Origin: an uncultured archaeon
Lineage (GTDB): Archaea > Asgardarchaeota > Lokiarchaeia > Sigyniarchaeales > SOKP01
Length of the DNA stretch: 64,000 nt
Assembly (NCBI GenBank): GCA_964508365.1
Contig: CAZDTP010000006.1
Location: 45,777 to 109,776 of the forward strand
Reading direction: 5' to 3'
How positions within the stretch are numbered: the first letter of the stretch is position 1; each line of letters starts with the position of its first letter. This document shows positions 19,792 to 46,636 of this stretch, in pieces. The notes beneath the pieces were generated by a model, which saw only the letters and a list, made by a program, of their open reading frames with translations, had not been told where the DNA came from and made no database searches. A program made the translations under genes and the position numbers.

Positions 19792-20595
19792 TTATTTCGT
19801 CATATTTTTCAGTGGTTTTGCTGATGTATATAAATAGCTAAAATAAAAGTTGCTTGCGGGTCCAAATGCTATATGATCGGTAGCTACCCCGAAATAGCTT
19901 AATGCCTTGAAAAAGCCTTGCGTCAGTATAATAAAAGCGTCTTCCCCTTCGTCCATTACTACGCTTGCTCCAAACACTTGATTACGAGAACGAATTTCAG
20001 AGATTTCACGATATTTTTCGATTACTTCTCTAAATTCTTTGTCTTTCAATGCGTCTTCTTCAATAAGCATTTTTATATCAGTAACTCCTCTAGCTCTTGC
20101 TTTTTTAACATCATCATAAAATACATCTAAAAACTCATAATAGGGAGCAACGAAGTATAGAGAATTTTTAGCGCGATTGATGAGATCAATACTGCGACTG
20201 ATACATACATCCCGTCCTCGGTGAACATATAAAGCAATTTTTATAGGAGTGTCATGAGATTCGTAAATAGGTTTGAGCATGTGGATGATTTTGTTTGAGT
20301 GTTCATCAAAATTATCGTTAAGTTGTTTCTTTGCGATAATTAGCACTTCATCAGGACTTTTTGCAAAATAAGTTGACGGACGAGTGTTTTCTTCTCTTAG
20401 AATGAACATTTTTTCCTTTTCTAATTGAGTTAAAATATTGTAAATTCTAGAATATGGAACACCTGAGGCATCAGAAAGCTCCCTTGCATCCATAGGTCCT
20501 TTTGAGATTAGAGTTAAATATATTGAAATCTCATAATCTGTTAATCCAATCGCATGCAAAGAATTTTTAACATTATCGGGAGTTTCATTTGACAT
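19792..20595 (-). CDS. TrmB family transcriptional regulator
   Basis: GLTDYEISIYLTL...ELSDASGVPYSRIYNIL HTH plus effector domain. Confidence 0.9.
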   Translation of the reverse strand: MSNETPDNVKNSLHAIGLTDYEISIYLTLISKGPMDARELSDASGVPYSRIYNILTQLEKEKMFILREENTRPSTYFAKSPDEVLIIAKKQLNDNFDEHSNKIIHMLKPIYESHDTPIKIALYVHRGRDVCISRSIDLINRAKNSLYFVAPYYEFLDVFYDDVKKARARGVTDIKMLIEEDALKDKEFREVIEKYREISEIRSRNQVFGASVVMDEGEDAFIILTQGFFKALSYFGVATDHIAFGPASNFYFSYLYTSAKPLKNMTK

Positions 20596-20720
20596 TATAC
20601 TGCACAGCTATTCAAATTTGTGTAATAAAGATGTTTTAAATACTTATAAGAGTTTTGTTAATTATTAGTTGAATAAATATTACATACTATATAAGATATT
20701 ATTGGTATTATTTTTTTTTT

Positions 20721-20775
20721 GAACCCTTGCGGGGCAAGTCATCTTGCGACTAATATTTTCTCGCAAAACTCATCC
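20721..20775 (-). promoter_or_regulatory. SECIS-like element (eukaryote-type, form 1) followed by a GNRA hairpin
   Basis: AUGAG-UUUUGCGA-GAAAAUAUUAG-UCGCAAGA-UGAC: 8-bp helix, tandem GA core, AAAA loop; then CCC-GCAA-GGG. Confidence 0.75.
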
Positions 20776-20792
20776 TTTTTTTAAAATAATGT

Positions 20793-20972
20793 TTAAAATA
20801 CATTTGTAAAGATACTGCATGTACTAGGTCATCCTCCTCCTGCTTCCTCAAGAGACCCAAAATATATTACTATCAAAGAGATAATTACCGTCAATGTAGC
20901 TATTAGTGCTATTAGAATAATATAGAGAACGATTTTATTGATTCTATCATTTTCAAATAATTTTAATCGCAT
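20793..20972 (-). CDS. Candidate small single-pass membrane selenoprotein (59 aa; Sec48 at TGA 20829..20831)
   Basis: MRLKLFENDRINKIVLYIILIALIATLTVIISLIVIYFGSLEEAGGG-U-PSTCSIFTNVF; TATATAAA about 25 nt upstream of the ATG; SECIS-like hairpin downstream; absent from the ORF track. Confidence 0.65.
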
Positions 20973-21150
20973 AAAAAAAGCCTATAATGATTTTTTATAT
21001 ATGTTAATTTTAAAATATTAAAAGCTTTTTCATAAAAAAATCCTTTTGGATTCAGAAAATTGACCGTTTGTTACTAGTGTATAAAATAAGTGTTTTTAAT
21101 TACGCTTCAATTAATTGATATTAAGCAAAAATAGAAAGACTTTCAAGATT

Positions 21151-21966
21151 ATGAATATAAATCATCGAGAATCTAAGAGCATCATAACTAAGAGCAACAT
21201 ACCCAAAATAGATTTTGTTATTAATCCTTATGTTGGTTGTCAGCATGGGTGTATTTACTGCTATGCGGAGTTCATGATAAGATTTACTGGCCACAAGGGC
21301 GATAAATGGGGCGAATTCCTGGATGTTAAAAATTACGACTTCGAGAAAATTAAACCTAAGAAGTATGATGGAAAAAGAATACTCCTTAGCTCTGTAACAG
21401 ACCCTTATATTCCTTTAGAGTTAAAATATAAAAATACTCGAAAGATTCTCGAAAAACTCGTTGGAACAAAAGCAGAGATTTCAATTTTAACGAAATCTAA
21501 ATTTGTTACACGAGATATTGATTTATTTAAAAAGTTTGATAATCTTGAAATTGGTATTTCAATCAGCTCTTTAGATAACGAATTCGCACAATTGATAGAA
21601 CGGGGAGCTTCAAGACCAAAAGAACGATTAGAAGCTTTAAAAGAAATACACGAGAACGGAATTAAAACTTATACCTTCATTTCACCATTTTTTCCAAAAA
21701 TTACTAATTATAAAGCGATAATAGAGGAGACAATGGATTATACAGATTCATATATGTTTGAAAATTTAAACTTCAGACCTCATAATGTTCCAAGAATTTT
21801 AAACATTATAAAGCAGATACATCCTGAATTTTTACCTCTGTATAAAGAATTCAGGAAGGACCATTCTAAATGGGATTCTATTGAATCAGAAATAGACGCC
21901 TATTGCAAAAAGATGAAACTTTTTTATAAAATCGAATTTCATCATGGGGGATTTTCAAAAAGCTAA
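21151..21966 (+). CDS. Radical SAM protein, SplB/Rv2578c-like DNA repair family
   Basis: INPYVGCQHGCIYCYA (CxxxCxxC), SSVTDPY, ILTKS. Confidence 0.88.
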   Translation: MNINHRESKSIITKSNIPKIDFVINPYVGCQHGCIYCYAEFMIRFTGHKGDKWGEFLDVKNYDFEKIKPKKYDGKRILLSSVTDPYIPLELKYKNTRKILEKLVGTKAEISILTKSKFVTRDIDLFKKFDNLEIGISISSLDNEFAQLIERGASRPKERLEALKEIHENGIKTYTFISPFFPKITNYKAIIEETMDYTDSYMFENLNFRPHNVPRILNIIKQIHPEFLPLYKEFRKDHSKWDSIESEIDAYCKKMKLFYKIEFHHGGFSKS

Positions 21967-21991: not shown

Positions 21992-22480
21992 TTAAAATAC
22001 TTCATCAATATATCTTTTTAATTGCTTCACATCTTCAAAATAAAATATGCTAACATTTTCTTTAAAGAATGGTTTTAGTAGCCCCCCTCTCTTTAAAACT
22101 TCAGTGATTTCTACATCTTTTAGAACAAACACTTTTGTTTTTTCATAGTATTCTTTAAAGGAGAGGATTATCCCCATCTCAATCATATGTCCGCCCTTAT
22201 CATGTTCGATGATCATAATGATCTCATCCGAGAATTTTGCGATTAAATCAAATTTTAGAATGAGATTTTCAAGATGAGTGCGTCTAAATTCTTTTTCAAA
22301 GAATCCAAGATTATTTTCATTCACATTTATTATCTTTTGCACTTCTTGAAGATTAGTGAATGTATCATCACTGTATGAACCACAAATGAAAATTTTATTC
22401 TTTAAAAGGTCGAAAACCGAAAAAACGCTAATGAATTCATCTAAAAATTCGTCCCATGCACTATGATGTGAGACCTCCAT
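21992..22480 (-). CDS. Hypothetical protein, possible nucleoside 2-deoxyribosyltransferase-like fold
   Basis: IFICGSY...DEIIMII...GGHMIEMG flavodoxin-like pattern. Confidence 0.5.
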   Translation of the reverse strand: MEVSHHSAWDEFLDEFISVFSVFDLLKNKIFICGSYSDDTFTNLQEVQKIINVNENNLGFFEKEFRRTHLENLILKFDLIAKFSDEIIMIIEHDKGGHMIEMGIILSFKEYYEKTKVFVLKDVEITEVLKRGGLLKPFFKENVSIFYFEDVKQLKRYIDEVF

Positions 22481-45338: not shown

Positions 45339-45557
45339 ATTCGTAACTTTGCTTTTTCTTTGTATAAGAAGAAAACGAGGAAATATAAACTTAAGGTCGA
45401 ACTAATATTGAGTATTATTCGTTATTTTATTAAATTTAAAGGTGTTTTCAACTATTTCTTTTTAAAAAATTAATTAAGTAGGGTTATATCTTATTCTAAG
45501 TAGAATGAGATAAGATAATGGTTCGGTAAAAGATTGACGCCGTTGTGCAACGGGCTT

Positions 45558-45598
45558 CTCGATAAGCACCCACATGTGTGTTTTAGCCTATTTCATTG
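45558..45598 (-). promoter_or_regulatory. SECIS-like element in the selD 3' UTR
   Basis: AUGAA-AUAGGC-UAAAAC..mini-stem..GU-GCUUAU-CGAG: AUGA/GA core, 6-bp helix, AAA bulge, 9 nt after the stop. Confidence 0.65.
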
Positions 45599-45604
45599 AC
45601 GTCA

Positions 45605-46636
45605 TTATACTTTACTTATTTCAATCTGTTCAACTTTTTTCGACATCCTAACAAGTTCATTTTCTTTGTTATCAATTGTACCAACAGTCCAATTAGAAAT
45701 GCCATTACTAGAGAGAGCGTTAGAAAAATCCTCTACTTTGCTCGGATCGATAGCTAATAGCATACCGCCAGCCGTTTCAGAGCACAAACAATCGGTAAAA
45801 GCGTATCCTAATTCCTCAGAAAGGTTTTTCGAAAACTTAATTGAAGGAACTGTTTCAATAATAGCAGATAATCCAGAATTTTGTAACATTTCTTTCAAAT
45901 GACCAGACAATCCGAAGCCAGTAACATCAGTCATAGCATGAATAAAAGAGAAATCGTCATATGTGTAAATCGTTTTTACTACGCCTTGATTAGATGTTGT
46001 CATAAGGTTTATGGCTAATTTAATCGAATCACTGAGCTCATTCGATGAATATTCCTCCAGCATATCTGGAAAATCTTTTTGTAACCTATATGCTGCCATA
46101 ATTGCTTGTAATCCAATAGGTTTTGTTAAGATTAATTTATCGCCTTTTTTTACACCGTGTTTCCGGATTAAATTGTTTTTATCGACAAAACCAGATGCTT
46201 CTCCACCAATAAGAGGCCACTCGCTATATATCGTATGACCTCCAACCACTTTGGAGTTTATTTTTTGTTCCATAAACCTGTTAATTCCTCTAAGAATTCC
46301 TTCTGCAATATTCATTGGAGTGTTTTTGTTGATAGCTAAAAACACGAGCATTCCTGAAACTTCTGGAACATTCATCGCAAATATATCATTTGTTACGTTA
46401 CAAGCAGAGATTTCGCCCATAATTTCGGGTTCATCTACAATAGGAGTAAAAATATCAATACTTTTCACTTGAACCAGGTCGGAATTTGGAACGGGCACAA
46501 TAGCAGCATCATCAATAAATCCTTTTAAACCAGTTTTCTCCAGTAATTCTTCTAATTGATTTGCACCAAGTTTACATGATCAACCATAGATTTTAACTTG
46601 CTTTGTCAACCGATATTCCTTTTTTTGTTCAGTCAT
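45605..46636 (-). CDS. selD: Selenophosphate synthetase, selenocysteine-containing (343 aa; Sec19 at TGA 46580..46582)
   Basis: MTEQKKEYRLTKQVKIYG-U-SCKLG continues in frame into DDAAI...DIFTP...NDIFAM...GGHT...DVTGFGL; GAGGTGA directly before the ATG. Confidence 0.93.

Follow-up and report, generated by a model that had tools for sequence, protein, structure and literature searches.

A small Lokiarchaeial gene with a eukaryote-like SECIS and an in-frame UGA that is almost certainly read as selenocysteine

Does a tiny reading frame that appears to stop after 47 codons continue through its UGA to make a membrane selenoprotein? The frame lies on the minus strand of a 64,000-nucleotide stretch of DNA (hereafter, the window; positions 45,777 to 109,776 of contig CAZDTP010000006.1, assembly GCA_964508365.1) from an uncultured archaeon of the Lokiarchaeia. 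An initial annotation proposed that this frame encodes an unannotated, 59-residue, single-pass membrane selenoprotein that is served by its own eukaryote-type SECIS element and that is possibly an analogue or relative of the eukaryotic selenoproteins SelK and SelS. Here, we examined whether the frame and hairpin are real, whether the UGA is likely to be decoded, and what the product might be.

The reading frame and its hairpin

We first confirmed that the described features are present in the sequence. An ATG at 20972 opens 47 codons that encode a basic N-terminus, a hydrophobic helix, and the segment GSLEEAGGG. These are followed by TGA, then by 11 more in-frame codons (PSTCSIFTNVF), and then by TAA. 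The features of the locus are as follows:

20994–21001 (−), TATA-like box (TATATAAA) centred about 25 nt upstream of the ATG; a candidate promoter of a leaderless or near-leaderless mRNA
20793–20972 (−), full coding sequence of 59 codons, with Sec at codon 48, plus the TAA stop (20793–20795); gene callers stop at codon 47
20850–20933 (−), predicted single transmembrane helix, residues about 14–41, preceded by a basic N-terminus (R2, K4, R10, K13)
20829–20831 (−), UGA codon 48, proposed to be read as selenocysteine
20817–20819 (−), Cys52 codon (TGC), the proposed resolving partner of Sec48 (U-x-x-x-C)
20739–20773 (−), lokiSECIS core: AUGA (20770–20773), 9-bp helix II (20761–20769 with 20741–20749), 11-nt loop GAAAAUAUUAG (20750–20760), and GA (20739–20740)
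20775–20777 (−), 5′ strand of the short lower helix (helix I, AAG), which pairs with CUU at 20736–20738
20736–20738 (−), 3′ strand of helix I (CUU)
20723–20735 (−), second hairpin abutting the SECIS (4 bp, CGCAA loop)
19792–20595 (−), TrmB-family regulator gene, the conserved downstream neighbour in this genus; context, not shown to be part of the unit

Three details of the initial annotation required correction. The stem, reported as 8 bp, is 9 bp (GUUUUGCGA with UCGCAAGAU), its lowest pair being G-U, so that the geometry is AUGA/9 bp/11-nt loop/9 bp/GA. The AUGA, placed 56 nt after the TGA, starts 58 nt after the first base of the TGA, with 55 nt in between. The hairpin that follows, described as having a GCAA tetraloop, is 4 bp with a 5-nt CGCAA loop. 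The suggestion of a leaderless mRNA is plausible. The motif TTAATATA[TC]ATAAAAAAT sits at the same offset in the close (PSTC) clade, although the genome is AT-rich.

The DNA is about 30% G+C, and the only flanking genes are a divergent radical-SAM gene (21115–21966, +) and the downstream TrmB-family gene (Pfam TrmB, E 8e-17). The small frame is therefore the only one that this hairpin could serve. The radical-SAM gene and an unknown 162-residue gene (21992–22480, −) accompany the small gene in only part of the genus and are probably not functionally tied to it. Compared with its close kin, this genome's copy is 4–6 residues shorter because it has TAA where they have TTA (Leu) (20793–20798, −), so the tail ends at TNVF.

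Comparison of the hairpin with the lokiSECIS of known genes

Is the hairpin a SECIS? The Lokiarchaeota SECIS, also called the Asgard type I eSECIS-like element, has been defined by an AUGA before a 9-bp stem, an 11-nt apical loop that starts A-rich and ends in G, usually preceded by A, a GA (or AA) after the stem, and a position just behind the stop codon (PMC4989117). The element matches each of these points. On the other hand, Rfam reported no SECIS family here, including RF00031 (SECIS_1), either at gathering score or at E up to 10, and returned only a tRNA-Trp and noise. This is expected for a lineage-specific form, in which the core motif is shared but the stem is shorter. Single-sequence folding was also uninformative (z = −1.4).

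To test membership more directly, we carried out a strict pattern scan of the whole 4.07-Mb genome on both strands. It gave only five perfect 9/11 matches: this element, three that lie behind known selenoprotein genes (VhuD, VhuU-like, and PrxL), and one on contig C28 of the assembly that looks like chance. The VhuD element on contig C53 is nearly identical to the element studied here. Next, we built a covariance model (R2) only from six SECIS elements of known selenoprotein genes in this genome (three VhuD, PrxL, HdrA, and VhuU-like) and scanned the window with filters off. The element scored 59.3 bits (E 5e-14) and was the only significant hit, the next scoring 13.6 bits. Similarly, a reverse model (R1), trained only on elements of the new family, recovered the VhuD, PrxL, and HdrA elements from the whole genome. 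Hairpins comparable to the second one at 20723–20735 also follow the SECIS elements of the VhuD, PrxL, HdrA, and VhuU-like genes.

The genome contains other elements of interest. On contig C22 (about 21310–21817, +), an unknown 154-residue frame with two adjacent in-frame TGA codons (HAD-U-U-ADN) and no Pfam match is followed, 8 nt after its stop, by a 9/11 lokiSECIS with a 3′ hairpin, and it may be another unlisted selenoprotein. On contig C89 (6344–6407, −), a SECIS-like element (38.7 bits with R1, one stem mismatch, 3′ hairpin present) has no convincing UGA-containing frame upstream and could be a relic or serve a very small unrecognised gene.

Does the genome have the machinery to use such an element? 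The window carries a Sec-type SelD gene with one in-frame TGA (about 45605–46612, −). Its 3′ UTR (45525–45606, −) does not fit the 9/11 pattern but starts with a 7-bp outer helix (UGACGUC with GGCGUCA) enclosing an AUGA, consistent with the distinct 'type II' SelD SECIS described in the literature. SepSecS (381 bits), a full-length PSTK-like gene, and a SelB-like gene are also present in the genome. However, tRNA(Sec) was not detected by Rfam RF01852 (whose best hit is a tRNA-Leu), by ARAGORN with or without introns, or in a scan of the contig holding the SelB-like and SepSecS genes. This result is weak, as the published Loki tRNA(Sec) carries a T-loop intron (PMC4989117) and only 29 tRNAs were found in the 149 contigs, and whether the genome has the full decoding machinery stays open.

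Conservation of the UGA and of the sequence behind it

If the UGA is decoded, it should be conserved among relatives. A six-frame search with the read-through peptide found relatives with exactly one in-frame TGA in about 25 genomes of the same genus. Profile searches extended this to 36 of 41 genomes of the genus, 44 of 54 genomes of a second genus, and 93 of 134 genomes of the same GTDB family, most with an in-frame TGA, whereas almost nothing was found in the rest of the phylum. A search for related loci in which U was passed on as Cys returned nothing, but a DNA pattern across the UGA found seven named MAGs carrying the close clade (bin41, bin49, Hel_238_bin105, E44_bin85, CSMAG_616, ABR04, and ABR11). 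We curated 44 sequence-distinct members. All 44 keep the TGA, none has TAA or TAG there, and in alignments of 24 and of 44 peptides the Sec position is the only invariant column. In this genome, TGA closes only 13.9% of long open frames compared with 69.5% for TAA, and the true terminal stops of the 44 genes are 31 TAA and 13 TGA. An ordinary stop would therefore not have stayed TGA.

Furthermore, synonymous changes occur directly after the UGA in the close clade (CCT/CCG, AGT/AGC, and ACA/ACG), and the Cys codon varies only between TGC and TGT. Cys is kept at +4 or +2 from Sec in all 28 curated members of the genus. The dN/dS is 0.33 before the UGA and 0.53 after it. It should be noted that the stretch after the UGA is short (11 codons here) and evolves fast, so the coding constraint rests on few sites.

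All 44 members also carry the 9/11 element, which starts 43–121 nt after the UGA: 51–60 nt in this genus, 43–45 nt in short forms that end in UC or UG, and 95–121 nt elsewhere. In a gapless 65-column alignment, AUGA, GA, and the loop adenines are invariant. Of 16 proposed pairs, 15 show changes on both sides, none of 500 shuffles reaches the observed values, and sliding the partners by 1–3 columns drops pairing from 90% to 30–52%. Three helices are supported: the 3-bp lower helix, all pairs of which covary across 43 distinct sequences (AU, GC, UA, and CG at the middle pair); the 9-bp main stem, with compensatory changes in eight of nine pairs and a lowest pair that is often unpaired, as expected next to a kink-turn core; and the abutting 3′ hairpin, all four pairs of which covary. 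Terminal UGA stops lie at most 5 nt before the element or are the UGA of its own AUGA, which fits the minimal-distance rule proposed in PMC4989117. The VhuU-like hydrogenase gene of this genome (motif DCULSCAAH; SECIS at contig C8, 45839–45873, −) likewise has no stop before its SECIS, its frame ending at the UGA inside the AUGA, and four members of the small-protein family do the same.

Could the frame and hairpin be a chance combination in AT-rich intergenic DNA? The frame is short, Rfam finds no SECIS family, and the folding energy is unremarkable. However, the gene recurs across about a hundred genomes with 30–76% peptide identity to close kin, and this, together with the covariance score and the covariation, refutes a chance origin. 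Alternatively, the gene might make mainly or only the 47-residue peptide ending in GGG, the hairpin being a duplicated SECIS copy with little or no recoding activity at this short spacing, so that the selenoprotein is at best a minor product. The near identity to the C53 VhuD element fits recent copying, the 58-nt spacing is shorter than the 83 nt of the VhuU-like gene, and expression data are lacking. Yet, the TGA is invariant in the 44 curated members, synonymous changes and a conserved Cys follow it, short-form relatives keep a 43–45 nt spacing, and the SECIS is kept by compensatory changes across genera, which a dead copy would not show. We consider this alternative unlikely.

A third possibility is that the small frame is a selenium-sensing leader for the TrmB-family gene, in which termination or readthrough at the UGA would report the Sec-tRNA supply and set expression of the regulator, the peptide itself being unimportant. 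The TrmB gene follows on the same strand in all 28 loci checked in the genus, starting about 140 nt after the SECIS in 27 of them, and the spacer (20596–20722, −) is strongly conserved, with repeated TAGTATG-like words and a TTAATTAACAAAA-TCTTATAAG block, and is probably the regulator's promoter and operator. On the other hand, no TrmB was found in the roughly 270–330 nt of downstream flank examined in other genera, the peptide is under purifying selection and keeps a membrane helix and a basic N-terminus, and the spacer contains its own TATA-like promoter motif for TrmB. We consider this reading very unlikely. In five other subfamilies, the neighbours (MFS transporters, a hydrolase, a ParA-like ATPase, radical SAM, gelsolin, PNPOx, and PGK) include no common partner, so gene context gives no hint of function outside the genus.

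Taken together, these results support, with a probability that we put at roughly 85%, an unannotated selenoprotein gene belonging to a family specific to a single lineage of Lokiarchaeia (Promethearchaeia). By inference from the known Loki system, and without transcript, ribosome, or protein data, a short, probably leaderless, monocistronic mRNA would be translated for 47 codons. At UGA-48, the 3′-UTR lokiSECIS would direct the Sec-specific elongation factor with Sec-tRNA(Sec) to insert selenocysteine, and translation would then run 11 more codons to the UAA, which ends 19 nt before the SECIS.

The predicted protein and its possible function

What might the protein do? The AlphaFold2 model has one long helix (9–43, pLDDT 79–91 in the core), a loop holding GGG-U-PS, and a short low-confidence helix. 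Lys+Arg average 4.3 in the 15 residues before the helix and 0.27 after it, the N-flank being richer in 44 of 44 members. The positive-inside rule therefore predicts a cytoplasmic N-terminus and a Gly-rich linker carrying Sec48 and Cys52 just outside the membrane, in agreement with the outward-facing Sec suggested by the initial annotation. The helix and tail evolve fast, while the Gly-rich linker and Sec stay fixed, which suggests an anchor that presents a reactive selenol. By inference only, Sec48 and Cys52 may cycle between a selenol/thiol pair and a selenenylsulfide, in which case the protein would be a membrane-tethered redox centre on the cell surface. Around Sec, the family shows U-x-C, U-x-x-x-C, UC-stop, UG-stop, C-x-U, and CxxU, almost always after a Gly-rich linker. 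However, some members have no Cys near Sec (UG-stop, UPG-stop), so a U/C redox pair cannot be the universal mechanism.

No Pfam family was found for the protein. Like SelK and SelS (PF10961, PF06936), it is small and has one N-terminal membrane helix, a Gly-rich segment directly before Sec, and Sec near the C-terminus (12 residues from the end here and 2 from the end in the short forms, some of which end in GGGUC or GGGUG). However, neither model is hit by the window's peptide at E up to 1 or appears among the families listed for the 44 members at E up to 10. The predicted topology places Sec outside the cell rather than in the cytosol, most members have a Cys partner and a hydrophobic tail after Sec, and no ERAD context exists in archaea. 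Thus, the proposal of a relative of SelK/SelS has no support, and only that of an analogue stands. It remains a remote speculation that these anchor-plus-Gly-rich-Sec proteins are the evolutionary source of SelK and SelS, such that a membrane-tethered C-terminal selenol, together with the eukaryote-like SECIS, predates eukaryogenesis and later changed topology and acquired its ERAD role.

We also searched for Cys-containing homologues. Among 1.84 billion cluster representatives, there are 34 matches, most of which are 46–52 residues long and end exactly before the Sec position, while the few longer ones carry W there, which is TGA read under another table. No Cys form was found among these or in the genomes searched, which is unusual for a selenoprotein family, and apparent hits without a stop were partial matches that contain the UGA further on. 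Three genomes of other Asgard families encode single-pass proteins of about 100 residues with a basic N-terminus and an external run of CxxxC repeats, which could be Cys-type analogues. They align only over the N-terminus and helix (hhalign 95% over 32 columns), which is probably compositional, and homology is not shown. Similarly, the FeoB-associated Cys-rich membrane protein (PF12669) is a tiny protein with a basic N-terminus, one helix, and a Gly/Cys-rich tail, but only four members match it, at E 0.14 or worse.

The decoding signal is thus already known from the HdrA-VhuD, VhuU/FrhA, and PrxL genes (PMC4989117; PMC11227280), whereas the protein is new: it belongs to none of the seven Asgard selenoprotein families (PMC11227280) or the 11 archaeal families counted in a 2026 review (PMC13188914), and further text searches found nothing in the literature we could search. 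The listed families were all found by homology to known families, whereas this one is an orphan found through its SECIS, and gene callers truncate it at the UGA. Asgard selenoproteomes are therefore under-counted, including that of the MAG bin41, which the 2026 review cites as the archaeal record holder and which carries this gene. This is the first candidate membrane-anchored selenoprotein in archaea, probably with Sec displayed outside the cell. Furthermore, its UGA-to-SECIS spacings, which in the 43–60 nt range are the shortest seen here, give natural data on the minimal working distance of the eukaryote-like SECIS: spacings of 43–60 nt appear to be decoded, while terminal UGA stops 5 nt or less from the element are not.
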